Shown here one piece after another: positions 27,058 through 50,173 of a stretch of DNA of 64,000 nt. The position numbers and the translations under genes are program-made. Within the stretch, counting starts at the first letter, position 1; each line of letters begins with the position of its first letter. Origin of the DNA: an uncultured Verrucomicrobiae bacterium (GTDB lineage: Bacteria > Verrucomicrobiota > Verrucomicrobiia > Chthoniobacterales > JAFAMB01); the NCBI GenBank assembly GCA_963775805.1, contig CAVZKG010000005.1, forward strand, positions 337,234-401,233, in the 5' to 3' direction. The notes under the pieces are model-generated. The model was not told where the DNA came from and made no database searches. It saw only the letters and a list, made by a program, of their open reading frames with translations.

Positions 27058-27061
27058 GGGG

Positions 27062-28138
27062 CTATACCTTTTGCTGGTTGAGTTGCGGTTGAACGGTGAC
27101 GATTTTTTGATCTTGGTTTTTGACTGGCTTACGCTTGCGAGTGGTTCGGCTTGGATTAACGACAGTCTCGACCTTTTGTTGAGATTCGATTATGGGAATT
27201 ACGGTTTTTATCGTGTGGTTGGCCGGCAACGGTTTCCCGTTCAGGTAGGTGCCAGCCGGTAGAAAATCTGCCGCTAGCCGGCTCGCCTTTTCCGCAAGGC
27301 TGGCTCGCAATTGACGGTTCATCTCCGGGTCTTTGTTCAGCGTCTTGTAAAGATCACCAAACAATCGGGTGATCTCATGGAATTCTTTCGGGACAGAATA
27401 CGGTTTGTGTTGTGTCGCTTTCGAAAATTCCAAAATCCGGTTCTCCCAGGCTTCCGGCAAAGGTGGCGCCCCGAGTTGGGCGAGCTTGCTCCGCAGTTCC
27501 TCTACGTTGCGAAACCCTTGCGTGATCGGTGGATAAAATGGAAACAGAGGACGGACGACATACACAGGATGCGGTTCGCCGGGCGCATTGTATGTCTGCG
27601 GATGGAGAAACAGGCTATGCCAGAAATGATGCGGATTTTCCGATTGATCCAGCCCGCGTCTGGTGGTTTTCGCGACCACAAAATTCGTTGGGTGATTGAT
27701 TGAGACGGAGTTGGCATGCGGCCGCAGGCTCTTCGGAACGATATGATGGCAATTAAACGACTCGCGCCTGCTGCGGGTTTGACCCGTACGAGCGGTTCGG
27801 ACTTCCGCGACAACGGCTGGCGGCCGGCCGCGCTCCATGAGTTCCACTCCCGAGGATCCAACGGCCAGCGCAGCGAGCGCCCGGCCAACCGGGTGCATGA
27901 CCAGTGCCTTGAGATAATCTGCCCGCAACGATTCATAGTCCCGCGCGACTTTTGCGTACTCCGGCCCGTCACGATCCACACCGGAAGAGAGGATTTTATC
28001 AAGAACGATTCCTGGCATCTCCGGGCACTTGCCGATGATCGAAGGATCGGCAGAGATTTGCTCCAAGTTTCGAATCATCTCGTCAACGGCTTTCACCATC
28101 GATGGACCTGGCGGAAAAGGTTCTAGATCGCGGGTCAT
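27062..28138 (-). CDS. Putative HNH/EndoVII-fold (AHH-like) nuclease-domain protein
   Basis: Central segment SFNCHHIVPKSLRPHANSVSINHPTNFVVAK...NPHHFWHSLFLH resembles the AHH-type HNH motif (xHHIxP...N...H). No signal peptide and no recognisable secretion or trafficking domain. Lys/Gln-rich C-terminal tail. Confidence 0.35.
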   Translation of the reverse strand: MTRDLEPFPPGPSMVKAVDEMIRNLEQISADPSIIGKCPEMPGIVLDKILSSGVDRDGPEYAKVARDYESLRADYLKALVMHPVGRALAALAVGSSGVELMERGRPPAVVAEVRTARTGQTRSRRESFNCHHIVPKSLRPHANSVSINHPTNFVVAKTTRRGLDQSENPHHFWHSLFLHPQTYNAPGEPHPVYVVRPLFPFYPPITQGFRNVEELRSKLAQLGAPPLPEAWENRILEFSKATQHKPYSVPKEFHEITRLFGDLYKTLNKDPEMNRQLRASLAEKASRLAADFLPAGTYLNGKPLPANHTIKTVIPIIESQQKVETVVNPSRTTRKRKPVKNQDQKIVTVQPQLNQQKV

Positions 28139-28221
28139 ACCAAATTATGAGAGCTTAAATAACATGCCAAAGGATTGTTCGCAACAATAAAAGAACATAA
28201 AAGTGAAATGTTATTTTCTTT

Positions 28222-28251
28222 GCATAAATGCTAGTGATCGAGCATTTATGC
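28222..28251. promoter_or_regulatory. 11-bp perfect inverted repeat GCATAAATGCT-N8-AGCATTTATGC in the AT-rich leader of the four-gene operon
   Basis: Read directly. Lies about 85-115 nt upstream of the 28138 start codon, in the most AT-rich stretch of this neighbourhood. Candidate operator; a hairpin after the upstream gene is an alternative. Confidence 0.35.
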
Positions 28252-28351
28252 GGCTTTCGCGCGGAACTATTCCAGTCCGCTGGAATCGCCCAGAGAGACC
28301 GGTGGGGTTGCCCGATTTTAGCGCCGTAAAGCCGTTTGCGGGGCGGTGACG

Positions 28352-29197
28352 CTAATTCGAATTGCCCGGCTGGGCGTTCGCGCCATCGCCTTCGATCGAC
28401 GCGATCAAGTTTCTTGCGATCGTCTGAATCGTAGCCGCATCTTCCTGCGATATTGCCTGTGAATCGGCCAGCTTTTGGCGAACCTGTTTCAGGCCCGCCG
28501 TGATTTCTGCGATCAGCGGCAACGATTTCAATGGGGTCGATAAGGTGTCGAGCCGCTGCAGATAGTAATCGAGTAAATCCAGTTCGCCGAGCTTTGCGGC
28601 GCGTTCAGGCGAAAAATCTGTGGCAACGCTTGCCGCGCCGATTTCCAGCCCGCGAATCCATCCTCCCAAACTGATGAGATGAGCCATTTCTTCGTCACGC
28701 AAATCGAGCATTGCCTTTTCGACATCTTTTTGAGTGACGATGAGTTCCTTGCGGAGACCGTTCCAGTCGGATTGTTTGGCGAGATCGAGCAGTTCTTTGC
28801 TGTGTCGATTGACGCGTTGCTGGACGCCGAGCCCTTTCGCTCGACGCAGCAGTTCTCGGCCGAGTGGTTCTATTTCTTTGTTTTCTTCAGCCTCGACGGC
28901 GAGAAAGGCATCTCCGATGAGCACGCCGAAGCTGAGAGCATATTTGACTCGGTTATCCAGACGAAGGGCGCGGGGAGCACGGGTCAGTTCCTGAAAAGGT
29001 ATCGGCTTGAGGGTGTCCAATGCGTTAAATAGCTGTTCGATGGACGGCGTCGTGTATTGATTGACGCCAAGTTCCTCGCGGAAATGGGGATCGGAAGTAA
29101 TGTCCGAATCCTGCTGAGCCTCGGCGAGTTCGGCGAAAACGAGACCAAAAACAACAACGAATCTGGCAAAAATCGAAGGCGACAAACCGGTGAGCAT
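28352..29197 (-). CDS. Secreted alpha-helical hypothetical protein
   Basis: Signal peptide MLTGLSPSIFARFVVVFGLVFAELAEAQQ. No family recognised. Confidence 0.55.
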   Translation of the reverse strand: MLTGLSPSIFARFVVVFGLVFAELAEAQQDSDITSDPHFREELGVNQYTTPSIEQLFNALDTLKPIPFQELTRAPRALRLDNRVKYALSFGVLIGDAFLAVEAEENKEIEPLGRELLRRAKGLGVQQRVNRHSKELLDLAKQSDWNGLRKELIVTQKDVEKAMLDLRDEEMAHLISLGGWIRGLEIGAASVATDFSPERAAKLGELDLLDYYLQRLDTLSTPLKSLPLIAEITAGLKQVRQKLADSQAISQEDAATIQTIARNLIASIEGDGANAQPGNSN

Positions 29198-31866: not shown

Positions 31867-34800
31867 ATGATTAAATTGAAAGCCGGTGTCCGAGCCAGTG
31901 ATTTGAAGGCGCGTACCCGCGGAACTCGCGCGCGTAGCAAGAAGAAGAGTGGGCTGAAATTCGAACGGTTTTTCAGCGCAGAAGGTCGATCTCCGTTTGA
32001 CGAGATCGAGTGGGAACGTCGGGTCGCCGAGATCACCGATGACAGCGGAAAGGTGATCTTTCGCCAGGAGGATGTGGAGGTTCCAAAGTCCTGGAGTGCA
32101 TTGGCTACAAAGATTGCCGTATCGAAGTATTTCTATGGAGACATCGCCAATGGGACTGACCCGTATGCCGGCGGCCGGGAGAACTCAGTTCGACAGCTGG
32201 CGCATCGTGTCACGCGGACGATTTCCGATTGGGGAATGAAGGATGGGTATTTCGCTGATAGCGCTTCTGCAGAAGCATTCTACGGAGACCTGACTTGGCT
32301 CTGCCTTAATCAGCATGGTGCATTCAACAGTCCGGTCTGGTTTAACGTCGGGCTCTACCAGCAGTATGGAGTTGGCGAGGGGGCCGGAAAAGGGAACTAC
32401 TTTTACAATCGGGCCACGGGCCAAGCCGAACGAGCGCCGACCCAATACGAGTATCCTCAGGCATCAGCGTGCTTTATCCAGTCAGTCGATGACACGATGG
32501 AAGACATCATGCGCTTGGCGACCAGCGAGGCGATGCTGTTCAAATACGGAAGTGGAACCGGATCGGATCTTTCGACTTTGCGCAGTACCCGGGAAAAGCT
32601 GAGTGGTGGAGGACGCCCAAGCGGGCCTCTCTCGTTTCTGCGCGTGTACGACCAGGTTGCCAACGTCGTCAAGAGCGGCGGTAAAACTCGCCGGGCAGCC
32701 AAAATGAACACTTTAAAGGATTGGCATCCCGACATCGAAGAGTTCATTGACGCAAAATCCAAGGAGGAAAAGAAAGCATGGGCGCTCATCGAACAGGGTT
32801 ACGACGGGAGCTACAATGGCGAAGCGTACGGCTCGATTATGTACCAGAACGAAAATCTCTCGGTTCGGGTGAGCGACGACTTCATGCAGGCCGCAATTGA
32901 CGGCAAAGAGTGGTGGACCCGCATGGTTGTGAGCGGCAAACCGTGTGACAAGAAGGATGCGCGCACCCTGCTGCGAAAAATTGCCGAAGGGACTTACATT
33001 TGCGGAGACCCGGGGATGCAGTTCGATTCGACCATTCACAAGTGGCATACGTGCAAAGGAACAGCGCGCCAAAATTCCACAAATCCCTGCTCAGAGTACC
33101 TTTTCCTCGACAATACGGCGTGCAATCTCGCTTCGCTGAACTTGATGAAATTCAAGAAAGCCGACGGCGGGTTCGACGTGGAAAGATTTAAAGCAGCCGT
33201 TCGAGTATTCATAACGGCGCAGGAAATACTGGTCGACAACGCCAGCTATCCAACCAAGGAAATCGCTGAGAACAGTCATATCTTTCGAACATTGGGGCTC
33301 GGTTTCGCCAATCTCGGCGCGCTCATGATGAGCTATGGCTACGGATACGATTCGAATGAAGCCAGAGCATTAGCCGGTTCAATCACCGCTATCATGACAG
33401 GCGAAGCCTATCTCCAAAGTGCCCGTACAGCCGGAGCGATGGGACCGTTCCAGGGATATCATGATTCGAGGGCGACCGGATTCTCCCGGACCTTGGCCCC
33501 GGACAACGTAGACCCTATGCAGGAGGTTATCCGGTTGCATCGGCAATACTGCGATCAAATCGAAGACTCAATCGAATTCGGTTCGCTCAAGGAACATGCA
33601 AAAGAAGTATGGAGCAACGCTTTCCGCATCGGTTCGGCAGATGGGTTCCGGAACGCTCAAGTGACAGTGCTAGCGCCGACGGGAACGATCGGGTTCCTGA
33701 TGGATTGCGACTCGACCGGTATTGAACCCGATATTGCTCTTGTGAAGTACAAGCTACTGGCTGGTGGCGGAATGCTGAAAATTGTGAACCAGACGGTTCG
33801 CCCTGCACTCGAAAAACTCGGTTATCCCGCGGATCAGATTGAGCAGATCCTTGCTCATATCAACGAACACGACACGATCGAGGATGTCGCAGTTCCTGAG
33901 AGCCAGATTGTGATCAAAAGCGGACTCAATCCGGAGCATCTGCCGATCTTTGATTGCGCGTTCAAACCCTACAAAGGCGAACGAAGTCTTCATTATCTCG
34001 GGCACCTGCGCATGATGGCTGCATGCCAGCCGTTTTTAAGTGGCGCGATTTCAAAGACGGTCAATCTCCCGAGCCACGCGACGGTCGACGAGATCATGAG
34101 CACCTATATCGAGGGTTGGCGCCTCGGACTGAAAGCCGTCGCAATTTATCGTGACGGATCGAAACGATCAGCTCCGCTCAACACAAAAAAGACCAAAGAC
34201 ATGGGTTCCGGCGAAGTCGCCGAAGCCGACGCGGGGCCTGAGGTGTTTCAGCGGCGGATCGTGGAATTGGAAAAGCAGATCGAGACGTTGCGGGCTAAAA
34301 TCGAGCTGCCCTCTCGCCGCCGGATGCCGGATACCCGGTTTTCGCTGACGCACAAGTTCGAGATCGCAGGCCACGAAGGGTATATCACAGTCGGTTTGTA
34401 CGAGAACGGGCAGCCGGGCGAACTTTTCGTCCAGATGGCGAAGGAAGGAAGCACAATCGGTGGACTCATGGACACGGTTGCAACCTTGAGTTCGTTGGCT
34501 CTTCAGTACGGAGTGCCCCTTGAAAGTCTCGTGAAAAAATTTGCTTATCAGCGTTTTGAACCGAGCGGCTTTACGAAAAATCCGGACATTCGGAACGCCA
34601 CCAGTATTACCGATTATATTTTCCGGTGGTTGGGATGCCAATTTATCAAAGGTTACAAGGAGGCGACGTCGCCGAGCCGTACTCAGCCCGACCTTCCGAT
34701 GAAGGAGATCGCTGATATCGACAAAAAGGCGATTAATCGCCCGGTCGCGGAACTGCCAAGAACAGCGGAAAAAGAAGTAATTGACGTGGTAACTAATCGG

Positions 34801-34986
34801 TCTAACTCAGAAGGAACGTCTGCCAACGGCAACGGTCTCTCGCAATTGCATGCCGACCGCGTCCAGGCCGCTTTGGAAAATATGTACATGGGTATGAGCT
34901 GCTCCCATTGCGGAAGCACGAAAGTGATTCGCGCCGGGGCATGCGGTGTCTGCACAGAGTGCGGAACTTCGCAGGGATGCAGCTAG
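31867..34986 (+). CDS. nrdJ: Adenosylcobalamin-dependent (class II) ribonucleotide reductase
   Basis: 1039 aa. SACFIQSV, TNPCSEYLFLDNTACNLASLNL (active-site Cys loop), AIYRDGSK. C-terminal Cys4 module CSHCGS...CGVCTECG. Confidence 0.88.
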   Translation: MIKLKAGVRASDLKARTRGTRARSKKKSGLKFERFFSAEGRSPFDEIEWERRVAEITDDSGKVIFRQEDVEVPKSWSALATKIAVSKYFYGDIANGTDPYAGGRENSVRQLAHRVTRTISDWGMKDGYFADSASAEAFYGDLTWLCLNQHGAFNSPVWFNVGLYQQYGVGEGAGKGNYFYNRATGQAERAPTQYEYPQASACFIQSVDDTMEDIMRLATSEAMLFKYGSGTGSDLSTLRSTREKLSGGGRPSGPLSFLRVYDQVANVVKSGGKTRRAAKMNTLKDWHPDIEEFIDAKSKEEKKAWALIEQGYDGSYNGEAYGSIMYQNENLSVRVSDDFMQAAIDGKEWWTRMVVSGKPCDKKDARTLLRKIAEGTYICGDPGMQFDSTIHKWHTCKGTARQNSTNPCSEYLFLDNTACNLASLNLMKFKKADGGFDVERFKAAVRVFITAQEILVDNASYPTKEIAENSHIFRTLGLGFANLGALMMSYGYGYDSNEARALAGSITAIMTGEAYLQSARTAGAMGPFQGYHDSRATGFSRTLAPDNVDPMQEVIRLHRQYCDQIEDSIEFGSLKEHAKEVWSNAFRIGSADGFRNAQVTVLAPTGTIGFLMDCDSTGIEPDIALVKYKLLAGGGMLKIVNQTVRPALEKLGYPADQIEQILAHINEHDTIEDVAVPESQIVIKSGLNPEHLPIFDCAFKPYKGERSLHYLGHLRMMAACQPFLSGAISKTVNLPSHATVDEIMSTYIEGWRLGLKAVAIYRDGSKRSAPLNTKKTKDMGSGEVAEADAGPEVFQRRIVELEKQIETLRAKIELPSRRRMPDTRFSLTHKFEIAGHEGYITVGLYENGQPGELFVQMAKEGSTIGGLMDTVATLSSLALQYGVPLESLVKKFAYQRFEPSGFTKNPDIRNATSITDYIFRWLGCQFIKGYKEATSPSRTQPDLPMKEIADIDKKAINRPVAELPRTAEKEVIDVVTNRSNSEGTSANGNGLSQLHADRVQAALENMYMGMSCSHCGSTKVIRAGACGVCTECGTSQGCS

Positions 34987-36719: not shown

Positions 36720-37505
36720 TCAAGCTTGTGAGACGTCGAGACGAAGCCCGTCGTAGGCAAGGAAAGTATTCTCCGGGAGTTCTTTCTCGGTCGCGGCGTG
36801 ACCGAAATCGTGACTGAGATGGGTCAGGTAAGTGCGATTCGGGTTCACCATCCGCGCGAAGGCGAGGCCTTCCATCATGTTCATGTGCGTCGGATGCACT
36901 CGTCTGCACGGCGTCCCAAGAATCAGCGTCTCAACTCCTTCGAGCATCTTGAGTCCAACCGGATAGACGTATTTGCAATCGCTCAAGTACGCGGCAATCG
37001 AGCGGTTTTCCCGGCGAAACAGGTAGCCGAGTACATGCGCGCTGCCATGCTCTACACGGATCGGGTGAATTTCAGTTTTTCCAAGGAAAAATGGACCGCC
37101 GATAACGTGTGGTTCCGGTCGCAAGTATCCGGGGTAATTAAACTTTCCGCTGAACGCATACGAAAACGCTTTCTCCAGGCCCTGCATCGTTTCGACGGAA
37201 GCGTAAATCGGCATGGTCGCGCCCGATGCTGAGCAGAATCGCCTTAGGTCGTCCAACCCCATTACGTGATCCGCATGCGAGTGCGAATAAAGGACTGCGT
37301 CCAGTGTCTGGATGTTTTCGCGCAACGCCTGAATCCTAAATTCGGGTCCGGTATCGACGACCCAGGATCGATCATCCGCCTGGACGTAGATCGACGAACG
37401 GGTCCGCTGATCTCGAGGGTCGGTGGATCGACAGACTTCGCAGTTGCACCGAATCATGGGTACACCCATCGAAGTTCCTGTGCCCAGAAATGTGATTGCG
37501 AGCAT
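36720..37505 (-). CDS. MBL-fold metallo-hydrolase (PhnP-like)
   Basis: LGTGTSMGVP, N-terminal CxC..C zinc knuckle (IRCNCEVC), HSHADH motif. Confidence 0.8.
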   Translation of the reverse strand: MLAITFLGTGTSMGVPMIRCNCEVCRSTDPRDQRTRSSIYVQADDRSWVVDTGPEFRIQALRENIQTLDAVLYSHSHADHVMGLDDLRRFCSASGATMPIYASVETMQGLEKAFSYAFSGKFNYPGYLRPEPHVIGGPFFLGKTEIHPIRVEHGSAHVLGYLFRRENRSIAAYLSDCKYVYPVGLKMLEGVETLILGTPCRRVHPTHMNMMEGLAFARMVNPNRTYLTHLSHDFGHAATEKELPENTFLAYDGLRLDVSQA

Positions 37506-37544
37506 CTATTGAAAAAAACCGCTGCACCCTTACATAATCGATCT

Positions 37545-39218
37545 GTGCCTGCAACGCTACGATTGCTGAGAATCCGGAACCTCGCTCTGGTGGAATCGCT
37601 CGACTGGGAGTTGACTCCCGGCTTCAGCGTCGTGACGGGTGAGACCGGAGCGGGTAAATCGGTGATCTTGGGCGCTCTCAAGCTGATCCTCGGCGAGCGG
37701 GCGGACAAAACGCTCATCCGGACGGGCGCAGACCAGTGTTCGGTCGAAGCGGCATTCGAACTCGATGACGTTACCGGTGTAAACCGGCTGCTGGATGAGC
37801 AGGGTGTGGATCGGTGTGAAGAGGGGCAATTGCTTCTGAAGCGGGTTCTATCGGTTTCGGGTAGTAGCCGGCAATTCATCAACGGATCGATGACGACGCT
37901 CGGGGTTCTGAAAGAGGTTGGCGACGGCCTTGTAGATCTGCACGGTCCCCACGATCATCAATCGCTCTTTTCACCCGATTATCAGCTCCTGCTGATCGAT
38001 GCTTTTGCCGCTCACCGCGATCTGCTGGAGAAATTTCGGGCAGTGTTCCGATCACTGAGCGATCTGCGCAAGAAGCAAAAGGAGCTTCTCGACCAGACGA
38101 CGGATCAGAATCTTGATCTCTGGCGCCATCAATTCCAGGAACTCGAATCGGCAGACCTGAAGCCATCTGAATTGGACGCGCTGCAGGCTCGGTACAACGT
38201 CGCGTCAAATTCCAAACGATTGATCGATGCAGCAGGTGCCGCGTTGGAGGAACTGTCCGGTGAGGAGAACTCGATTCTCTCACGTTTGGCCGAGATCGCG
38301 CGGCAGTTGCGAGAAATCGGACGATTGGATGCATCGGCCACCGATCTACTCCGGGCCCACGAGTCGGCGACGATCGAGGTCGAAGAATTCGAGCGAAGCA
38401 TTTTGGATTACCAATCGAACCTTGATATCGACCCGGAAGCGCTCCATTCGATGGAGGAACGGCTGAATCTCCTTCAATCCCTGCAGCGCAAGCATCGGCG
38501 CGATGAAAACGGTCTTCTCGAACTGATGGAGGAACTGAAAGCCCGGCTCGATCAATTTGGGCGAAGGGATGAACTGCTAGGTGAAATCGAAGCGCAACTT
38601 CTAACCGAAACGGGTCGGCTTGAAAAACTTGGAGGTGAGCTGTCCGCTTCTCGCAGAAAAACGGCAGTGGCTCTTTCAAAGTCGATTCACCGGCATTTAA
38701 ACGATCTCGGATTCGGCCAGGCTGCTTTCGATATCCGATTGGAGCCACTCGAAGAACCTCGCTCAAGCGGTTTTGAGACCGTTGAATTTCTGTTCGCGTC
38801 GAATCTTGGCGAACCACTGAAGCCTTTGCGAGCGGTCGCGTCCAGCGGCGAGATATCACGAGTCATGCTCGCGCTGAAAACGGTCCTGGCCCAACAAGAC
38901 CTGGTTGGTTTACTTGTTTTTGACGAGATCGACGCGAATGTCGGCGGCGAGATTGCGCATTCCATAGGGGCGAAAATGCGATCCCTCGGCGATACCCGGC
39001 AGGTGGTCGTAATCACCCATATGCCGCAGGTCGCGGCAGCAGCAGCCCGTCACTTTACAGTCATGAAGACGATTTCTGAGGGGCGAACTCGGACAACGTT
39101 AACAGAGGCCAGTGGTGTAACTCGCATCGATGAAATCGCTCGAATGCTTGGCGGCAAAACCAAATCCGCCGTCGACCACGCAAAAGAGCTCTTAAAGCAA
39201 AATACCACTCGGTCTTGA
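37545..39218 (+). CDS. recN: DNA repair protein RecN
   Basis: LRIRNLALVESLDWELTPGFSVVTGETGAGKSVILGAL (Walker A), long coiled-coil, SGGEISRVMLALK signature, LVFDEIDANVGG. Start is GTG 37545 or TTG 37563. The 37266 ORF extension is antisense to the MBL gene and rejected. Confidence 0.9.
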   Translation: MPATLRLLRIRNLALVESLDWELTPGFSVVTGETGAGKSVILGALKLILGERADKTLIRTGADQCSVEAAFELDDVTGVNRLLDEQGVDRCEEGQLLLKRVLSVSGSSRQFINGSMTTLGVLKEVGDGLVDLHGPHDHQSLFSPDYQLLLIDAFAAHRDLLEKFRAVFRSLSDLRKKQKELLDQTTDQNLDLWRHQFQELESADLKPSELDALQARYNVASNSKRLIDAAGAALEELSGEENSILSRLAEIARQLREIGRLDASATDLLRAHESATIEVEEFERSILDYQSNLDIDPEALHSMEERLNLLQSLQRKHRRDENGLLELMEELKARLDQFGRRDELLGEIEAQLLTETGRLEKLGGELSASRRKTAVALSKSIHRHLNDLGFGQAAFDIRLEPLEEPRSSGFETVEFLFASNLGEPLKPLRAVASSGEISRVMLALKTVLAQQDLVGLLVFDEIDANVGGEIAHSIGAKMRSLGDTRQVVVITHMPQVAAAAARHFTVMKTISEGRTRTTLTEASGVTRIDEIARMLGGKTKSAVDHAKELLKQNTTRS

Positions 39219-41123: not shown

Positions 41124-41141
41124 ACCACTACATTTAGTGGT
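41124..41141. promoter_or_regulatory. NrdR-box-like palindrome ACCACTA-CATT-TAGTGGT
   Basis: Perfect 7-bp arms. Resembles the NrdR box consensus (acaCtAtATaTaGtgt). Lies just 5' of the riboswitch in front of nrdB. A degenerate partner (ACCGCTATTAGTGG) lies about 31 bp upstream at 41093-41106. Confidence 0.4.
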
Positions 41142-41144
41142 ATG

Positions 41145-41315
41145 TCCGTGAAAAAGTGCCTCCCTCTACGGTCGGAGGAGAATAGGGAAACGGGTGGGAA
41201 TCCCGTGCGGTAGCGCCGCTGTAACGAGAGACGAAAGTCCCAATGAAGTCACTGCGCGAAAGCGTGGTAAGGCGGGGCCGGTAGGATGACCTCGGAGTCA
41301 GAAGACCTGCTTTTT
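41145..41315 (+). promoter_or_regulatory. Cobalamin riboswitch (5' leader of nrdB-nrdA)
   Basis: Conserved core AAUAGGGAAACGGGUGGGAAUCCCGUGCGGUAGCGCCGCUGUAAC, then GUCACUG...GGUAAGGCGGGG, and the B12 box GAGUCAGAAGACCUGC at 41294-41310. Confidence 0.85.
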
Positions 41316-41464
41316 CATGCTCATCAAGTCCCCGGCCTGGTATCCGGGGCGACTCTCTCGCCAAAGAGAGGATGGGATGCCGAATGCTGCCTTTGCCGCC
41401 TTCTGGATCCCGGCTCGGGGATGGGAAGGCATTTTGCTTTTCGCTCCGATGATCCAATCGCGCC

Positions 41465-42637
41465 GTGGCGGGCGCTCAAGTAGAAATAACCCATCCAATG
41501 TTAAGTCTGTCAGAGCGAGCTGAGAGCTTGTCCGAAGAGCAGGAAGAGGGACGTGAAGTTCTCTATACGTTTCAAAATCGTACATTCCGCCTCGACAAAG
41601 AAAAGGCCCGGGCCCGTCTTGCCGGCAAAAGAGTCATTAATGGGATCCGAAGTGCAGAATTGAATGTTCTGCCGCTCAAGTATCACGAAGCCTATCGCAT
41701 CTATAAGCAGATGAAGGCTAATCATTGGGAACCGGACGTCATCGACATGACCAAGGATTGTGCGATGTGGAATTCGGGTAAGCTCAACGCACGCGAACGA
41801 TGGATCATCGAGATGGGGGTCGGTTACTTTTCTGCGGCGGAGGGAATCGTGGGTGATAGCGTCCTCCATGTAATCGAGGATAATCTGACTGCCGCCGAGT
41901 TGAAGCATGCCTCGCTCCGGCAAATTGCTGAGGAATCGATCCACATGGATTCGCTTCTGCACATCATCGACAGCCTCAATATCAACCTCGATGAAGTGAC
42001 CGCGAAGTTTCAGGATGTACCGTCGATTCGGAAGAAAAATGCCTATGTCACACGGCACCTGCCCGAATTGAAAATGGGCATTGATTTGACGCAGACCGTG
42101 AATAAACAAAAGTTCGCCAAGGCGATCTTCGGGATTACCCAAGTCATGGAGGGGACGCAATTTTACGCGCTCTTTGCGATGATCCTTTCGCTGCACCGCC
42201 AGAACAAAATGACCGGTATCGGTCAGATGTTTCAGTACACTTTGCGCGACGAATCGAATCACATCGCGCTCGGACGATACATTCTCGAAAAGCTGATCGA
42301 GGAGAATCCAGATCTGTGGACCGAAGAGTTCCGTTCCGAACTCGTCGCATTCATGCAAGAAGGTGTTGAACTCGAAAAGGAATTCGTGCGCGATTGCCTT
42401 CCTGCAGACATCGTTGGCATGACGCAGCAAGATTTTCTCGATTATGTCGACTACAATGCCGACCGACGTCTTGAGAGTCTCAATCTTCCGAGGTTGTCGG
42501 GCGTTTCGGCAAACCCGTTTCTATGGCTGGATGAAGTGATCTTTCTGAAAAAAGAGAAGAATTTCTTCGAGACGCGTGTGACCGAATACCAGACACGTGG
42601 AAGCGTCCAGAACACCAGCGAAGAGGATCTGATTTAA
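41465..42637 (+). CDS. nrdB: Ribonucleotide reductase small subunit, class Ic-like (R2c)
   Basis: Alignable by eye with Chlamydia trachomatis R2c: FSAAEGIV, RQIAEESIHMDSLLHII, VMEGTQFYALFAMILSLHRQNKMTGIG, YTLRDESNH, KEKNFFETRVTEYQ. Glu is the first metal ligand and Leu164 (41954-41956) sits at the radical-Tyr position. Start is GTG 41465 or ATG 41498. Confidence 0.88.
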   Translation: MAGAQVEITHPMLSLSERAESLSEEQEEGREVLYTFQNRTFRLDKEKARARLAGKRVINGIRSAELNVLPLKYHEAYRIYKQMKANHWEPDVIDMTKDCAMWNSGKLNARERWIIEMGVGYFSAAEGIVGDSVLHVIEDNLTAAELKHASLRQIAEESIHMDSLLHIIDSLNINLDEVTAKFQDVPSIRKKNAYVTRHLPELKMGIDLTQTVNKQKFAKAIFGITQVMEGTQFYALFAMILSLHRQNKMTGIGQMFQYTLRDESNHIALGRYILEKLIEENPDLWTEEFRSELVAFMQEGVELEKEFVRDCLPADIVGMTQQDFLDYVDYNADRRLESLNLPRLSGVSANPFLWLDEVIFLKKEKNFFETRVTEYQTRGSVQNTSEEDLI

Positions 42638-42652
42638 CCGGGAATTACGGCA

Positions 42653-45472
42653 ATGAATACAGAATCACCTGAGTTGGTGGCAAACCTCGGTTTGGCTTCG
42701 GCCTCGGAGTTTCCTCGCGTAATCCGGCGCGACCTTCCGGGCGCGAAATCGATGAAACCGCGGGTAGTCCCGTGGATCGGGCGAAAGATCGAGACAGCGG
42801 TTGATGCAGCCTGCGTTGCGGTTGGACATCCGCCGGTTGGCAAGGAGTTGCAGGCGGAAGTGGAATTTCGCGTGAAGAAAGAGTCCCCTCTTTTTATCCA
42901 TATCGAGGAGTTGCAGGATCTTGTTGAGAGCCTTTTGGTTGAGCTCAACTACGGGCTGGTCGCTCTGGCCTACGCCAAGTATCGCGCAAGACGCGCGGTC
43001 TTGCGCGAAATCGACGCTCAATCCGCGGCCAATGCCGCCGAACAACTTGAGTTAGCAGCTCCAAGCTGCGTCGGCGATCTTCGACGTCGGATTTCGTTTG
43101 CGCGGATCGGTTTGAACCTGACTCTTTCGGACTCAGAATTAATCGCACGGCTGATGCGCAGCGTTTCCCTCTCGCTCACACCGGAGGAGCAGCGCGAGAC
43201 GGTTATTCTGAATGCGAAAAATCTGCTGGATGTCGACGCCGATGGCCGATTTTTTGCGGGACGTATTCTTCTCACATACATCTACGAAGAGACGTTGCCC
43301 TGGAAAACAAGCGACGGAATTGACCGGCTCAAAGATGCGCATCGGAGGGCCTTTCTGGACTACATCCCGAATGGCATTCAACAAGGACGCCTTGATTCGC
43401 GACTCGCCGAGTTTCGATTGAATGAAATCGCCGATGCAATCGATCCATACGCCGATCTGCAGTACGATTTCATTGGGATTCAAAATCTGTATGACCGGTA
43501 CCTGATCCATCTAAAAGATCCAAGCCGGCACGACGGGCGGCGCCGTGTGGAATCGCCTCAGATTTTCTGGATGCGTGTTTCGATGGGTTTAGCTTTGCTG
43601 GAGCGAGAACGCGAAACGCGCGCGAAGGAGTTCTACGGGATCTATCGGGCCAAACGAGCCTGTTCCTCCACGCCGACGCTCTTTAACTCTGGAACGCGGC
43701 GTCCGCAGTTGTCGAGTTGCTACCTGCTTCATTGCGGGGATTCAATCGAGGAGATTGCCGAGACCTGGGGCCGATTCTCTGTGCTCTCAAAATGGGCGGG
43801 AGGACTTGGTTGCTCTTGGAGCGCGGTGCGTGGCACTGGCGCGCATATCCAGGGTACGAATGGGGAGTCTTCTGGCGTAATCCCATTCTTGAAAGTGGCG
43901 AACGACATCTGCGTCGCCGTGAACCAGGGAGGCAAACGCCCAGGTGCTCTGTGCAGTTACATCGAGCTTTGGCATGCCGACGTTGAAGATTTTCTCGATC
44001 TCCGCAAAGAGACCGGAGATGACCGACGCCGCACGCACAATATGAACACGGCGCTTTGGGTTCCGGATCTATTCATGAAACGCCTCCGCGACATCTCCGA
44101 AAGCCGCCTCACCAAAGACGCGACCTGGACCCTGTTTCGAGGAGACGAAACCCGGGATCTGCCCGAAATCTATGGGAGCAAGTTCGAAGAACGCTACCTC
44201 CAGTATGAAGCGTTGGCCGAGTCCGGTGCTATCTATGGCCGCAAGATCCGGGTGCTGGCGCTCTGGAAGCGCATGATCGAAGCGTTATTTGAGACGGGCC
44301 ATCCCTGGATCACTTTCAAGGATCCATCGAATGTCCGATCGCCTCAGGACCACGTAGGCGTCGTTCATAGTTCGAACCTCTGCACCGAAATCACACTCAA
44401 TACGAGCATGGAAGAGGTGGCGGTTTGTAACCTCGCATCGATCAACATTCCAAATCATTTGCATGAAGATGGCTCGATTGATCATGCGAGTCTCGAGGCT
44501 ACGATTCGCGTCGTCATGCGGATGCTCGATAACGTGATTGATATCAACTACTACCCGTCTAACGCCGCAGAGAGAGCGAATCTGCGTCATCGACCCGTTG
44601 GGCTTGGTGTCATGGGTCTCCAGGATGCGCTTTACATTAAGCGGATCGCATTTGATTCCCATGAAGCCGTTGATTTCGTTGATCAGATCACCGAAGCAAT
44701 CGCTTTTTACGCATACGCGGCCTCGGCAGACCTCGCGGTTGAGCGTGGCAGGTATTCGACGTTTGAAGGTTCGAAATGGGATCGCGGGCTTCTGCCGCTT
44801 GATACCTTGGCACTTCTCGAACAGGAACGCGGCATGCCGGTGCTGGTTGATCGCAAGAGCCGCCTGGATTGGGATAGTCTACGCGCTAAGATCCGTCAGC
44901 AGGGGATGCGGAACTCGAACTGCCTGGCGATCGCGCCGACTGCGACAATCTCCAACATCATGGGTTGCACACCCTGCATAGAACCGACCTACAAACACAT
45001 CCACACCAAATCGAATTTGTCCGGTGAGTTTGTCCGTACAAACGGCTATCTGGTGAAGGAACTCCTCGATCTCGGTTTATGGGATGAGGAAATGCTGTCC
45101 GATCTTAAATATTTTGACGGGTCGATCCAGGGAATTGAGCGGGTGCCGGAAGAAATGAAACGTCTTTACAAGACAGCATTTGAGGTTGAACCAACTTGGT
45201 TGCTCCAGTGTGCCGCAGTTCGTCAAAAATGGCTCGATCAGTCGCAGTCGGTGAACTTATTTCTTGCAGAGAATGACGCTCGGCTGGCCTCATTCATGTA
45301 TCGCGAGGCCTGGGAGAGGGGACTCAAGACCACCTACTATTTGCGGACGATCAACAAATCGGGCATTGATTCCAGCAATCGCGAGCGAAGAAAATCGGAG
45401 CCGGCCATTACGCCGGTCCTTTGTTCGATTGAGGCTGCAATGAACGGCACGATATGCGAGTCTTGCCAATGA
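42653..45472 (+). CDS. nrdA: Ribonucleotide reductase large subunit, class I
   Basis: 939 aa. N-terminal ATP-cone-like segment (VIRRD...KIETAV). SSCYLL, SSNLCTEITL...VCNLASINI, TTYYLR. C-terminal Cys pair CESC. Confidence 0.9.
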   Translation: MNTESPELVANLGLASASEFPRVIRRDLPGAKSMKPRVVPWIGRKIETAVDAACVAVGHPPVGKELQAEVEFRVKKESPLFIHIEELQDLVESLLVELNYGLVALAYAKYRARRAVLREIDAQSAANAAEQLELAAPSCVGDLRRRISFARIGLNLTLSDSELIARLMRSVSLSLTPEEQRETVILNAKNLLDVDADGRFFAGRILLTYIYEETLPWKTSDGIDRLKDAHRRAFLDYIPNGIQQGRLDSRLAEFRLNEIADAIDPYADLQYDFIGIQNLYDRYLIHLKDPSRHDGRRRVESPQIFWMRVSMGLALLERERETRAKEFYGIYRAKRACSSTPTLFNSGTRRPQLSSCYLLHCGDSIEEIAETWGRFSVLSKWAGGLGCSWSAVRGTGAHIQGTNGESSGVIPFLKVANDICVAVNQGGKRPGALCSYIELWHADVEDFLDLRKETGDDRRRTHNMNTALWVPDLFMKRLRDISESRLTKDATWTLFRGDETRDLPEIYGSKFEERYLQYEALAESGAIYGRKIRVLALWKRMIEALFETGHPWITFKDPSNVRSPQDHVGVVHSSNLCTEITLNTSMEEVAVCNLASINIPNHLHEDGSIDHASLEATIRVVMRMLDNVIDINYYPSNAAERANLRHRPVGLGVMGLQDALYIKRIAFDSHEAVDFVDQITEAIAFYAYAASADLAVERGRYSTFEGSKWDRGLLPLDTLALLEQERGMPVLVDRKSRLDWDSLRAKIRQQGMRNSNCLAIAPTATISNIMGCTPCIEPTYKHIHTKSNLSGEFVRTNGYLVKELLDLGLWDEEMLSDLKYFDGSIQGIERVPEEMKRLYKTAFEVEPTWLLQCAAVRQKWLDQSQSVNLFLAENDARLASFMYREAWERGLKTTYYLRTINKSGIDSSNRERRKSEPAITPVLCSIEAAMNGTICESCQ

Positions 45473-45529: not shown

Positions 45530-46033
45530 ATGGAAACGACCGATTCCGAAGAGCAAAAGGCTCCTCGATTGACGGGAAATGTCTCTCTGGATTGCGATGA
45601 GCGGTGCCCGATTTGCGAAGGGGACAATGGATGTCGCATCGCGAAAGGCTATTTATACAAAGGACCTTGCTGGTGCCAGGAGATCGCGGTTCCGGGGCAC
45701 ATCGTACGATCCTTGGGACTGAACCGCTTTGAGCCGGCGTGCATTTGCCGCACCTGTCTTCAAATGCTCGCCGAGCTTTCACGTGAGATGAACGATCCCG
45801 TCGAAATTCTCCGGAGGGTGAGAGCCGATCGTTTGCCTGCGCCGTCGGGCAACGCTGTGAATGATTACTATTTCGATCGCAACGGGAACATGGTATTCAC
45901 CGCGGAGTATCATCTCCGTCGAGGATTCTGTTGCGCCAACGGGTGTCTCCACTGTCCCTATACGACGGCCCCGCCAAGTTTAAAAATCTCGCTGTGCGCT
46001 AACTTCGCGCAGGATGATCAGAGGCAAAAATAA
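45530..46033 (+). CDS. Cysteine-rich CWC-domain plus DUF5522-like protein
   Basis: CPICEGDNGCRIAKG...GPCWCQEI...CICRTCL (CWC family pattern). C-terminal YYFDRNGNMVFTAEYHLRRGFCCANGCLHCPY (DUF5522-like). Confidence 0.6.
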   Translation: METTDSEEQKAPRLTGNVSLDCDERCPICEGDNGCRIAKGYLYKGPCWCQEIAVPGHIVRSLGLNRFEPACICRTCLQMLAELSREMNDPVEILRRVRADRLPAPSGNAVNDYYFDRNGNMVFTAEYHLRRGFCCANGCLHCPYTTAPPSLKISLCANFAQDDQRQK

Positions 46034-46044
46034 ACCATTTCGTC

Positions 46045-47442
46045 GTGGCGTGCTCGCCGACCGTCGAAGAGGTTCACGCGCTGGGACTGCATCTTGAAAA
46101 GCGAATGAATGTAAAACCTGTACGGTTGAACCAGTTCGTCGTCTGCCGGGCAATGACTCAAGCGCTGGTCAATCGGCATCCATTCTCATTCCTCTTGGAT
46201 TTGAGCCGGAGCAACGCTCCCGTATTCTTCTTCCGTTTCGCAAGGGAGAGAGTCTTTGTTTTCAATGACCCAGATCTGATCAAAGAGGTTTTGGTGGTGA
46301 ATCACGCGAAATTGCAAAAGGGGCGTGGCCTGGAACGAGCCAAACAAACGTTAGGGAACGGACTCTTGACCAGCGAGGGCGAATTACATCACAAACAAAG
46401 AAGAATCATCCAACCGGTATTTAATCACAGGAATTTGCAAGCATACGCGGAGCCGATGGTTGATCACGCTGCAAAATTATCGGCTTCTTGGAATGACGGA
46501 CAGCAGGTCAATATCACCGCCGCGATGACAGAGCTCACCCTGTCAATCGTTTGCCAAACTCTGTTCGGCTTGCAGTTCGACGGCGACGCGAAGAAAGTGC
46601 GAGAGCTTCTGGCACAAATGATCGGTGCGTTTCCGCTGTTCCTAGTGCCGTTTTCCGGACTCCTTGCAAAGCTGGGCGTCGCGAGGATTCGAAACGCTCT
46701 GGCCGCGAGAGAAGAACTGCACAGAACTGTTCGACGCTTAATCGAAAAACGCAGATCCAGTCCTTACCAAACGTTGGACTTGTTGAGTTTGCTCTTTGCG
46801 GCTCAAGACGAGGAAAGCGGAACACGGATGTCAGATCAGCAGATTGAAGATGAGACGATGACGATCTTCCTGGCGGGCCACGAGACCACGGCGAATGCGT
46901 TATCCTGGACTTTTTATCTACTGGCGCAGAATCCAGATTTCGATCACAGCCTCCGAACCCAATTGCGAACGGTTATTGGAGATCCGCCGCCGACTGTGGC
47001 TCAATTGTCTGAGTTGACCCTGTTGGATGAATTGGTTCATGAATCGTTGAGATTGTATCCGCCGGCTTGGATCATTGGCAGACGAGCGATGGAAGACCTC
47101 CAAATCGGAACGATTGAAATCCCGCAGCGGTCCCTGCTGCTTGTCAGCCCGTGGATCACGCATCGATCTGCAAAGTTTTTTCCTGATCCAACGGAGATGA
47201 AGCCTGATCGATGGACGGAAGCTTTTCGCAAGCAGCTTCCGCGGTACGCCTACTTTCCCTTCGGCGGCGGTCCCCGCCAATGCATCGGCGAAGGGTTCGC
47301 ATGGATGAAATTGAAACTTATCCTTGCGATTCTTTTACGCAATTGGCGCCTGGAACTGGTACCTGGCCAGGATATCCGACCAAAGCCCGCGATTACGCTG
47401 AAGTCGAATCTTCCAATTCATATGACTGTTCATCGAGTTTGA
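46045..47442 (+). CDS. Cytochrome P450
   Basis: Heme loop FPFGGGPRQCIGEGFA, I-helix FLAGHETTA, ESLRLYPP (ExxR). Start uncertain: GTG 46045, ATG 46105 or ATG 46153. Confidence 0.88.
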   Translation: MACSPTVEEVHALGLHLEKRMNVKPVRLNQFVVCRAMTQALVNRHPFSFLLDLSRSNAPVFFFRFARERVFVFNDPDLIKEVLVVNHAKLQKGRGLERAKQTLGNGLLTSEGELHHKQRRIIQPVFNHRNLQAYAEPMVDHAAKLSASWNDGQQVNITAAMTELTLSIVCQTLFGLQFDGDAKKVRELLAQMIGAFPLFLVPFSGLLAKLGVARIRNALAAREELHRTVRRLIEKRRSSPYQTLDLLSLLFAAQDEESGTRMSDQQIEDETMTIFLAGHETTANALSWTFYLLAQNPDFDHSLRTQLRTVIGDPPPTVAQLSELTLLDELVHESLRLYPPAWIIGRRAMEDLQIGTIEIPQRSLLLVSPWITHRSAKFFPDPTEMKPDRWTEAFRKQLPRYAYFPFGGGPRQCIGEGFAWMKLKLILAILLRNWRLELVPGQDIRPKPAITLKSNLPIHMTVHRV

Positions 47443-47594
47443 ATATCCTCTCGCACCGGATTCCCCCGTTGCAAGGCGACCGGAGAAGAGGAATAAAATG
47501 GACCCTGGAAACTTTCGCTGCTGTTGACGTATTCCGGAGACCCGGTAATCTGAGTTCGAGTTCTTTGATTTTGAGCGAGGATTATATCCTTCGC

Positions 47595-47800
47595 GTTTTG
47601 ATCGCAGAACAGAGGGAATGCCGTGAGAATCAGCAACAGTCCCGCTGCGGTAACGAGCTACAGACCTCCACGCACCGTTTCTCCGTCTGAGTGACGACGC
47701 GGCAAAGCCAATCGGGAAACCGGTGAAGGCGGGGGCGAGGATGCGTCACACGGGTGGCCAAGAAGCTTGGAGTCCGAACACCTCGTCTGACGATTTTACA
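47595..47800 (+). promoter_or_regulatory. Cobalamin riboswitch (5' leader of metE)
   Basis: AGAGGGAAUGCCGUGAGAAUCAGCAACAGUCCCGCUGCGGUAACG core, GCCAAUCGGGAAACCGGUGAAGGCGGG, and a divergent B12 box GGAGUCCGAACACCUCGUC (47769-47787). The RBS AAAGGAGA lies 6 nt before the ATG at 47834. Confidence 0.7.
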
Positions 47801-47833: not shown

Positions 47834-50173
47834 ATGGGATCTCGGATCCTAATTCATAATCTCGGTTATCCCCGCGTCGGCGCGACTCGCCAACTGAAGC
47901 GGGCCCTCGAAAATTATTGGCGCGCCGCGGAAACGGCCGACGAGCTTCAAAAAACCGCGTCCGAGTTGAGGCGCTTGAACTGGCTTCAACAACAATCTGC
48001 AGGAATCGATCTCATTCCGACCGGCGACTTCAGCTTTTACGATCACGTTCTAGACACCATCGCAATGGTGGGTGCAGTACCGGAACGCTTTGAATGGGAC
48101 GGTTTGCGAACGGATCTGCCACTCTATTTTGCAATGGCTCGCGGCAAAGTTTCCGACGACGGCGCCCCGCATGAGCAAGGAGGTTCTGCCCATTCGAATA
48201 CGCATTCCGATTCGGTTGGAGTTCACGCGATGGAAATGACCAAATGGTTCGACACGAACTATCATTATATCGTCCCGGAATTCCGTGAGGGGCAGCCGTT
48301 CGCACATTCATCGACCAAGGTGGTTGATGAATTTCAAGAAGCGCACAAGCTTGGGATAAGGGCTAGGCCGGTATTGTTGGGGCCATCAACATTTCTCCGG
48401 CTGGGCAAGATTCACGGCCGGGATTTTGATCGATATAGTCTGCTGCCGGGGTTGCTTGATATTTACGGTGAAGTTTTGCAGATCCTGGCCGCTTCGGGGG
48501 CGGAGTGGATTCAGTTCGATGAACCGATTGTTGCACTCGATATGTCACCGACGGAACGCCTCCATTTAAATGAGATCTATTCCCGTCTGACCCACGCAGT
48601 GCCTGCGCTAAAGATTCTTGTAACGACCTATTTTAATGATCTTGGTGAAAATCTTTCCGCATTCGCGGAGCTCCCTGTGCACGCATTGCATGTCGACGGC
48701 GCCCGTTCTGAACATGAACTCGATGATTTGATTAGACATGCCGGTGCGCAGAAAATCATCTCGTTAGGGCTCGTTCACGGCCGCGATATTTGGCGCAACA
48801 ATTATGAGCGCTCCCTCCGGATCTTACGAAAGGTCGTTTCGGCAGTCGGAGAGGAACGTGTCTGGATCGGTCCCTCATGCTCCCTGCTGCATGTCCCCTA
48901 TTCATTGAAATACGAGACGAAACTCGATCCGGAAATCAAATCGTGGCTCTCGTTCGCCGAGGAAAAACTGATCGAGCTCTCCGAGCTGCGTGAGGCAGTT
49001 GAAGGCAATGAAGAGATCGTGACTCGGAACCGCGAACTGCACCGGGCTCGTTCCGAAAGCGCGCGAATCCATCTTCCAGAAATCAAGAAGCGAAGTCAGT
49101 CCGTCGTAGAAGAAGATTTGAAAAGGAGCCACCCGTATCCGGTTCGCCGCCAGGTCCAGCAGGGACATCTGCAGCTGCCCGATTTACCGACCACAACAAT
49201 TGGATCCTTTCCGCAAACGGAACAGGTGCGTTCGACCCGGGCTCACTACCGAAAAGGCAAAATCGCCGAGAGTGATTACGAATCCTTTCTGAAACAGGAA
49301 ACCGCCCGAGTTGTGCGCTGGCAGGATGAAATTGGCCTGGATGTCCTTGTTCACGGCGAATTTGAACGAACCGACATGGTCGAATACTTCGGTGAGCAAT
49401 TGAGTGGATTCACCTTTACCGAGAACGGATGGGTCCAAAGCTATGGATCACGTTGCGTGAAGCCGCCGGTTCTTTTTGGAGATGTTCAAAGACCAAACCC
49501 GATGACGGTCCGATGGTCCAGGTTTGCTCAAGATCAGACAAAGAAACCGATGAAAGGAATGCTAACCGGTCCAATCACGATTCTTCAATGGAGCTTCGTT
49601 CGCGACGATCAGCCACGGTCGGAGACGACACGCCAGATCGCGTTGGCGATTCGTGACGAAGTGGTTGACCTCGAGGCTGCCGGCATTTCGGTGATTCAGG
49701 TAGATGAACCCGCGATGCGGGAGGGATTGCCTTTGAGAAAGGCTGCCTGGGCTGAATACTTGCGCTGGTCCGTGGACGCCTTCAAACTTGCCACCTCGGG
49801 CGTGAAAGATTCGACGCAGATTCACACTCACATGTGCTATTGCGAGTTCAACGATTTCGTTGAAGCAATCGCCGCACTCGATGCCGACGTGATTTCCATC
49901 GAGAGTTCCCGCTCCGAGATGGAATTGCTCGAGGCCTTCCGTACGTTCCAATATCCGAACGAAGTCGGACCCGGCGTGTACGATATCCATTCACCGAGGG
50001 TGCCCTCCGTTGAAGAAATCACTGGCTTATTAGAAAAAGCGCTCCGCGTTCTTCCGAGAGCTCAAGTCTGGGTGAATCCGGATTGCGGCCTGAAAACACG
50101 TGGATGGCCTGAGGTCGAGAAGTCACTGAACAATATGGTGACGGCGGCACGATCCTTGAGAGGTAAGCGGTAG
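47834..50173 (+). CDS. metE: Cobalamin-independent methionine synthase
   Basis: 779 aa. NLGYPRVGATRQLKRALENYW N-terminus and C-terminal zinc-site blocks (IHTHMCYCEF, NPDCGLKTR). Confidence 0.93.
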   Translation: MGSRILIHNLGYPRVGATRQLKRALENYWRAAETADELQKTASELRRLNWLQQQSAGIDLIPTGDFSFYDHVLDTIAMVGAVPERFEWDGLRTDLPLYFAMARGKVSDDGAPHEQGGSAHSNTHSDSVGVHAMEMTKWFDTNYHYIVPEFREGQPFAHSSTKVVDEFQEAHKLGIRARPVLLGPSTFLRLGKIHGRDFDRYSLLPGLLDIYGEVLQILAASGAEWIQFDEPIVALDMSPTERLHLNEIYSRLTHAVPALKILVTTYFNDLGENLSAFAELPVHALHVDGARSEHELDDLIRHAGAQKIISLGLVHGRDIWRNNYERSLRILRKVVSAVGEERVWIGPSCSLLHVPYSLKYETKLDPEIKSWLSFAEEKLIELSELREAVEGNEEIVTRNRELHRARSESARIHLPEIKKRSQSVVEEDLKRSHPYPVRRQVQQGHLQLPDLPTTTIGSFPQTEQVRSTRAHYRKGKIAESDYESFLKQETARVVRWQDEIGLDVLVHGEFERTDMVEYFGEQLSGFTFTENGWVQSYGSRCVKPPVLFGDVQRPNPMTVRWSRFAQDQTKKPMKGMLTGPITILQWSFVRDDQPRSETTRQIALAIRDEVVDLEAAGISVIQVDEPAMREGLPLRKAAWAEYLRWSVDAFKLATSGVKDSTQIHTHMCYCEFNDFVEAIAALDADVISIESSRSEMELLEAFRTFQYPNEVGPGVYDIHSPRVPSVEEITGLLEKALRVLPRAQVWVNPDCGLKTRGWPEVEKSLNNMVTAARSLRGKR

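Follow-up and report, generated by a model that had tools for sequence, protein, structure and literature searches.

A class Ic-like, tyrosyl-radical-free ribonucleotide reductase predicted behind a cobalamin riboswitch in an uncultured Verrucomicrobiae bacterium

Class Ia NrdAB ribonucleotide reductases (RNR) use a diiron-tyrosyl radical cofactor, and in the beta subunits (R2) of class Ic a Mn(IV)/Fe(III) cofactor replaces the tyrosyl radical, residues other than Tyr at the radical site being the mark of this subclass. The locus described here is an nrdB-nrdA pair in a stretch of 64,000 nucleotides (the window) from an uncultured Verrucomicrobiae bacterium, positions 337,234 to 401,233 of the forward strand of contig CAVZKG010000005.1 (assembly GCA_963775805.1). 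Judged from sequence, with a probability of roughly 0.7, nrdBA would encode a working O2-dependent class I RNR, tyrosyl-radical-free (class Ic-like) and most likely with a Mn(IV)/Fe(III) cofactor, which is held under riboswitch control as a back-up of the class II enzyme NrdJ.

The closest described proteins are the R2c of Chlamydia trachomatis (1syy, 4d8f) and the R2c of 6y2n, which show the same fold as the window protein, the same six metal ligands with Glu as the first one, and no Tyr at the radical site. The transfer Trp, the Asp-His pair, the equivalent of Y222 and the C-terminal Tyr are common to the chlamydial and the window protein, and both have a NrdAz-type alpha subunit gene adjacent. 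They differ in the radical-site residue, which is Phe in C. trachomatis and Leu in the window, are only 39% identical and fall into separate clades (100% bootstrap). The gene order is nrdA-nrdB in Chlamydia and nrdB-nrdA in the window, the second shell of the metal site is more polar in the window protein (T231, Q232, T259, N265 and R271), and the window NrdA shows one weak ATP-cone, whereas Chlamydia is reported with three (bioRxiv 10.1101/2022.04.23.489257). Below, sequences are grouped by their first metal ligand and their radical-site residue, the window protein being Glu+Leu. The class Ia NrdAz/NrdBz group (P. aeruginosa and relatives from Gallionella, Kangiella and Methylobacillus) contains beta subunits 26-40% identical to that of the window, about as close to it as those of the Glu+Phe group, and the window NrdA is nearest to that of P. 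aeruginosa (5im3, 850 bits). Unlike the window, these relatives are Asp+Tyr (40/40 loci) and have the order nrdA-nrdB.

Regulation has its closest parallel in Streptomyces. According to PMC12528414 (citing Borovok et al. 2006), a cobalamin riboswitch is found there on nrdABS, an O2-dependent class I operon whose genome, like the window, has NrdJ as well, and B12 (cobalamin) chooses which RNR is made; this choice is shown experimentally in Streptomyces and is predicted in the window. The Streptomyces enzyme is class Ia, with a tyrosyl radical, whereas that of the window is class Ic-like and belongs to a different phylum. Leu, Ile and Val at the radical site of R2c proteins are likewise reported in PMC3824934 (citing Hogbom 2010) and in bioRxiv 10.1101/2022.04.23.489257. 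Both the Leu at this site and the B12 riboswitch on class I operons are already on record, and current understanding is not overturned by the findings given here.

Organization of the nrdB-nrdA locus and its radical site

The open reading frame (ORF) called mechanically at 41465-42637 on the + strand, which opens at GTG 41465 and encodes 390 aa, was confirmed. The features of this region are:

41498-42637, + strand: nrdB, class I RNR beta subunit of the Glu+Leu (class Ic-like) type, 379 aa from ATG 41498
41954-41956, + strand: CTT codon of Leu164 (Leu153 from the ATG), at the site of the class Ia radical Tyr and of Phe127 of C. trachomatis R2c
42653-45472, + strand: nrdA, class I RNR alpha subunit, 939 aa, NrdAz-like

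GTG 41465 is probably not the true start of nrdB, and ATG 41498 was preferred. The GTG lies in the loop of a conserved leader hairpin (41460-41475), the equivalent GTG of an orthologous locus (L003) is out of frame with nrdB in a leader alignment read by eye, and an identical protein already present in public databases (P0001, NCBI/ENA; 379 aa) begins at ATG 41498. Residue numbers in this text count from GTG 41465 and, since they rest on an unlikely start, 11 has to be subtracted for numbering from the ATG (E126, H160 and L164 become E115, H149 and L153). The TAA stop of nrdB occupies 42635-42637 and the ATG of nrdA is at 42653, which leaves an intergenic gap of 15 nt. No second nrdB was found in the window.

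The translation shows the motifs FSAAE126G, E157-E-S-I-H160-M-D-S-L164, ME229G and RDE263SNH266, with the two E/D + EXXH metal-binding motifs of the class I RNR beta subunit. The six metal ligands (E126, E157, H160, E229, E263 and H266) are all there, and they are invariant in 16 of 16 members of the clade described below. A phmmer search against the PDB gives C. trachomatis R2c (1syy/4d8f/2ani) as the top match (E=1.3e-74), with an alignment that spans residues 43-380. In this alignment E126 falls on chlamydial E89, so that Glu and not Asp is the first ligand, and "eesihmdsl" lies over "eeavhthtf" without a gap from the EExxH motif to the radical site, which places L164 on F127. Helix C (IAEESIHMDSLLHIIDSL) contains no Tyr, and therefore no alternative register could bring one to the radical site. 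W88, D262, Y258 and the C-terminal Y375 correspond to chlamydial W51, D226, Y222 and Y338; these radical-transfer residues are invariant or nearly so across the clade, D262 belongs to the pair D262-H160, and Y375 is followed by an acidic-hydrophobic tail for alpha binding that ends in QNTSEEDLI.

Profile searches place the protein in the same family. It matches Pfam PF00268 (Ribonuc_red_sm) with 226.9 bits (cutoff 33.6) over profile positions 3-276 of 281 and NCBIfam NF005550 (RNR beta) with 323.3 bits (cutoff 309), and it stays far under the cutoffs of the class Ia and class Ib NCBIfam models. In place of the Asp first ligand and radical-site Tyr of class Ia it has Glu126 and Leu164, that is, the Glu first ligand and the redox-inert residue at the radical-Tyr position that are characteristic of class Ic. 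An earlier examination made from the letters and their translations (the sequence-only reading) had already aligned the protein with chlamydial R2c, listed six ligands with Glu126 as the first, located Leu164 at the radical-Tyr site and given the order nrdB then nrdA with 15 nt between them. All of this is borne out, including the register, for which a Tyr-bearing alternative was looked for and none was found. The proposal built on it, a radical-tyrosine-free class Ic-like R2, agrees with Glu126, Leu164, the retained transfer residues and the complete NrdA encoded next to it.

The nrdA product shows the Pfam domains ATP-cone, Ribonuc_red_lgN and Ribonuc_red_lgC (610 bits for the last) and matches NCBIfam NF005544 with 1083 bits (cutoff 965); since its closest structure is P. 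aeruginosa NrdA, it is classed as NrdAz-like. It contains the motifs SNLCTE, SSCYL, VCNLAS and TTYYLR and a C-terminal CESCQ. From what is known of E. coli R1, we take SNLCTE to be the catalytic motif, SSCYL and VCNLAS to hold the cysteines and TTYYLR to be the Tyr-Tyr dyad. By these motifs the predicted subunit is complete, with the dyad, the catalytic Cys, Asn and Glu and the C-terminal redox cysteines kept.

With no Tyr available at that position, storage of the oxidising equivalent would have to fall to the metal cluster. Its most likely form is a Mn(IV)/Fe(III) pair, a cofactor assignment that we infer by analogy with C. trachomatis R2c; such a cluster would form with O2 and undergo reversible reduction in every turnover.

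The cobalamin riboswitch of the leader and the class II enzyme

The leader of nrdBA and the other B12-related features of the window are the following:

41137-41328, + strand: cobalamin riboswitch aptamer (Rfam RF00174) in the nrdB-nrdA leader
41353-41370, + strand: conserved leader hairpin CTCTCT-CGCCAA-AGAGAG, from a three-way leader alignment read by eye
41398-41442, + strand: candidate intrinsic terminator, with a hairpin at 41398-41430 and a U-rich tract at 41431-41442
41460-41475, + strand: conserved leader hairpin GCGCC-GTGGCG-GGCGC, whose loop holds GTG 41465
31867-34986, + strand: nrdJ, class II adenosylcobalamin-dependent RNR, 6.5 kb upstream of nrdBA
47581-47799, + strand: second cobalamin riboswitch (RF00174, 42.5 bits; gathering score 31.5), upstream of metE
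47834-50173: metE, B12-independent methionine synthase (Pfam Meth_synt_1 and Meth_synt_2)

On its upstream side the aptamer is preceded by an ECF sigma gene (end at 41070), and 170 nt separate its 3' end from the ATG of nrdB. It matches RF00174 with 107.3 bits (gathering score 31.5; E=6.7e-26) over the full model (1-189 of 189), and a B12-box-like GAGUCAGAAGACCUGC is visible in the alignment. Orthologous aptamers precede nrdB in two related loci, L001 (104 bits) and L003 (116 bits). Downstream of the aptamer, the hairpin at 41353-41370 shows a compensatory double change in L003 (CTGTCT...AGACAG), and the one at 41460-41475 shows compensatory changes, also read by eye, in L003 (GTGCC...GGCAC) and L001 (GCGCT...AGCGT), which argues that the latter is leader RNA rather than coding sequence. 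Between these two, the hairpin at 41398-41430 folds alone at -20.2 kcal/mol and is followed by AUUUUGCUUUUC, and an analogous hairpin with a U-tract is present in L003. The segment 41398-41442 is a weak candidate for the terminator of an OFF-switch expression platform.

The nrdJ product shows the Pfam domains Ribonuc_red_2_N, Ribonuc_red_lgC and TSCPD and exceeds the cutoffs of NCBIfam NF005122 (1304 bits, cutoff 859) and TIGR02504 (527.7 bits, cutoff 399.95). With plentiful B12 nrdBA would be silenced by its leader, probably through termination of transcription at 41398-41442, leaving the cell dependent on NrdJ; a shortage of B12 in the presence of O2 would bring nrdBA into expression. A role of nrdBA as the B12-independent back-up of NrdJ is thus predicted and is well supported by the riboswitch in the leader and by nrdJ itself; the sequence-only reading had named this role without giving evidence for it. 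The riboswitch before metE suggests the same regulatory logic for a second gene of the window, and MetE would stand in for the B12-dependent methionine synthase in a parallel manner. Within 20 kb, nrdBA and metE are both behind cobalamin riboswitches and next to the B12-dependent nrdJ, from which it is predicted that soil and freshwater Verrucomicrobiota switch DNA-precursor synthesis with the B12 supply. No NrdR box was found anywhere in the window, where ACACWATATATWGTGT has no match even with three mismatches allowed. Class I RNR and MetE, both independent of B12, are encoded side by side elsewhere too: in a Planctomycetia metagenome-assembled genome (MAG; L030:7176-9458) and in Methylobacillus flagellatus (L048:8091-10358), metE is found just downstream of a class Ia-type nrdAB.

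The Glu+Leu clade and the alternatives to a Mn/Fe enzyme

The 120 homologues nearest to the window protein in the database (85-100% identity) all combine Glu as ligand 1 with Leu at the radical site. The best 150 matches in a library of 50%-identity representatives include 27 Glu+Leu, 17 Glu+Phe, nine Glu+Val, two Glu+Ile and 37 Asp+Tyr sequences, and the 79 genome loci that cover both positions contain 40 Asp+Tyr, 24 Glu+Phe and 15 Glu+Leu pairs, without any mixed pairing. In the 15 Glu+Leu loci the Leu codon is CTC in nine, CTG in five and CTT in one, CTT being the codon of the window. Since the codon varies synonymously, it is the amino acid and not the DNA that is conserved, and the comparison indicates that Leu at this site is not a matter of chance and is under selection.

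Orthologues 76-87% identical to the window protein were found in Verrucomicrobiota/Chthoniobacterales MAGs (Chthoniobacteraceae, Verrucomicrobiae and others), one of them on a 5.0 Mb contig, in keeping with the free-living bacterium of the Planctomycetes-Verrucomicrobia-Chlamydiae type that had been proposed earlier, and a 55%-identical relative is encoded in a Fimbriimonadaceae (Armatimonadota) chromosome. A neighbour-joining tree was built from 106 sequences and bootstrapped on a subsample of 45, with arbitrary rooting and unresolved deep branching. The Glu+Leu sequences form one clade in 100 of 100 bootstraps, as does their verrucomicrobial subset; the clade is mainly from Verrucomicrobiota, with outliers in Armatimonadota, and its mean identity is 38% to the Glu+Phe group and 37% to the Asp+Tyr proteobacterial group. 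Class Ic-like sequences have already been treated as scattered or polyphyletic (PMC3824934; bioRxiv 10.1101/2022.04.23.489257). Wherever nrdA could be located, the order is nrdB-nrdA in all verrucomicrobial Glu+Leu loci and nrdA-nrdB in every Glu+Phe and Asp+Tyr relative. The Fimbriimonadaceae Glu+Leu nrdB (L013:5908-8409) shows no nrdA within 6 kb and is followed by a 439-aa ORF.

Residues were compared in an alignment of 16 Glu+Leu, 32 Glu+Phe and 48 Asp+Tyr sequences, plus a small sample of Glu+Val and Glu+Ile sequences. Invariant in the Glu+Leu sequences and unlike both other groups are Y121 (Phe elsewhere), G127, D131, L165, T231 (Ile/Leu), Q232 (Phe), L236 (Gly), M255 (Gln), T259 (Ile), N265 (Ile/Val/Met) and R271 (hydrophobic). 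T259 is presumably the counterpart of I234 in E. coli, an Ile in the hydrophobic pocket that surrounds the radical Tyr. T259 and N265, which is just before the last His, are common to most of the small sample of Glu+Val and Glu+Ile sequences and may have co-adapted with an aliphatic radical-site residue.

Some members of the wider family are altered. In a Verrucomicrobiae MAG chromosome (L015:5926-9708), nrdB and nrdA are each broken by several frameshifts, and the pair may be either pseudogenes or the product of long-read indel errors; a degenerate paralogue was rejected here, the K/T/S/T that tblastn places at the second-half ligands being an artefact of the frameshifts. P0121, a 755-aa protein of the 50%-identity library, is a tandem fusion in which an intact Glu+Leu R2 is followed by an R2-like copy without most of the metal ligands but with an acidic tail at its C terminus. 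Its make-up resembles a beta-beta-prime pair of the yeast Rnr2-Rnr4 kind joined covalently. Further ligand-degenerate relatives are P0137, P0154, P0182 and P0243.

Several results weigh against a riboswitch-controlled Mn/Fe enzyme of the chlamydial kind. The Glu+Leu clade is the exclusive sister of C. trachomatis R2c in 0 of 100 bootstraps of the arbitrarily rooted tree and, at the low identity given above, is a separate lineage. Several positions of its second shell are polar and invariant (T231, Q232, T259, N265 and R271, with Y121 for Phe) where those of the Glu+Phe and Asp+Tyr groups are hydrophobic, so that the metal chemistry could differ. The R2c structures matched in the PDB (1syy, 4d8f and 6y2n) all have Phe, with no Leu-type protein among them, and the ATP-cone match of NrdA is weak (29.2 bits). 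As for the leader, the riboswitch is found in only three of 13 Glu+Leu leaders (window, L001 and L003), 10 of the 12 related loci scanned being below the gathering score of RF00174; a clade-wide riboswitch was rejected, and B12 control is therefore lineage-specific. A consensus terminator scan flagged nothing on the + strand, including 41398-41442, and whole-leader minimum free energy folds are no better than those of shuffled sequences (z = -0.56 and -0.65). Of the class Ic affinity claimed by the sequence-only reading, the class Ic-like residues stand, but the protein lies outside the chlamydial R2c clade.

A working tyrosyl-free class I RNR with another high-valent cluster, either Mn2(IV,III) as in class Id or diiron, and maybe activated by superoxide or H2O2, is unlikely, though it is the alternative to be taken most seriously. 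Class Id likewise has Glu as its first ligand (PMC6754362), and the distance of the clade from the characterised R2c proteins, its invariant and unusually polar second shell and the lack of a Leu-type protein among the solved structures matched would all suit such an enzyme. Class Id structures are, however, far weaker matches (6cwo, ~4.5e-15; 6sf4, ~7e-8) than chlamydial R2c (E=1e-74), the NrdA is NrdAz-like with an N-terminal extension, unlike the minimal class Id alpha subunit, and class Id (NrdBi) retains the Tyr that the nrdB product does not have at this site, which places the window protein outside that subclass. More doubtful is the idea that the Glu+Leu clade forms a biochemically distinct, unnamed subclass of class I and not a Leu-for-Phe copy of chlamydial R2c. 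The mainly verrucomicrobial distribution, the inverted nrdB-nrdA order and the polar second shell, Y121 included, point in this direction, and the remodelled pocket could support another metal pair, another activating oxidant or another site for the oxidising equivalent.

A tyrosyl or other amino-acid radical elsewhere in the protein is very improbable. Its candidate is Y121, which is Tyr in 16 of 16 Glu+Leu and Phe in 32 of 32 Glu+Phe sequences; Tyr is also present in five of 48 Asp+Tyr relatives, so that it is not tied to the loss of the canonical Tyr, and helical geometry would put this residue, five positions before ligand 1, off the ligand face of helix B. We know of no precedent for a radical at a position of this type. 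Hardly credible at all is the idea that the protein is a catalytically silent beta-prime subunit of the yeast Rnr4 kind or an oxidase of the R2lox type. The radical Tyr is missing, and the wider family includes members with degenerate ligands as well as a fused beta-beta-prime pair (P0121, P0137 and P0243), but the six ligands are intact and invariant, the window has no other nrdB, and nrdB is paired with nrdA across the clade. R2lox shares the ferritin-like fold, a Mn/Fe-capable site by analogy and the lack of a radical Tyr, but it has no C-terminal Tyr or tail, carries a Tyr-Val cross-link and is unpaired with NrdA (PMC3824934), unlike the window protein. The scores with the NCBIfam models of R2lox lie at 28-52 bits throughout, the cutoffs being 194-346, so kinship with R2lox, which the sequence-only reading had set out as a finding that would speak against it, was not seen with these models.

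Read as a tyrosyl-radical-free class I RNR with an aliphatic radical-site residue in a free-living bacterium, nrdBA would provide a candidate model enzyme, and its comparison with the Phe-type chlamydial enzyme could reveal pocket features that tune metal choice and cluster stability.

Other genes of the window

The rest of the window has the appearance of ordinary chromosomal housekeeping. The region 45530-47442, which begins 58 nt past the end of nrdA, codes first for a 167-aa Cys-rich protein (CWC + DUF5522) and then for a cytochrome P450. The CWC/DUF5522, P450, ECF sigma factor and YCII genes were rejected as RNR accessories, being present in none of the other related loci fetched, and the first two are probably unrelated to RNR. 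The region 5748-7503 contains a gene of the MbnB/TglH/ChrH family (DUF692, 352 bits) with an overlapping DUF2063 gene next to it, a pairing typical of peptide-modification loci like those of ribosomally synthesized and post-translationally modified peptides. At 25730-29197, on the - strand, four consecutive ORFs (242, 207, 358 and 281 aa) show no Pfam match at E<=1e-5, and an adjacent 571-aa ORF at 24008-25723 shows only sub-threshold ResIII/AAA_19 matches. The mechanically called RecN ORF at 37266-39218 opens with GTG and encodes 650 aa, but its match to the RecN model does not begin until residue 98, so its real start is probably about 290 nt downstream.

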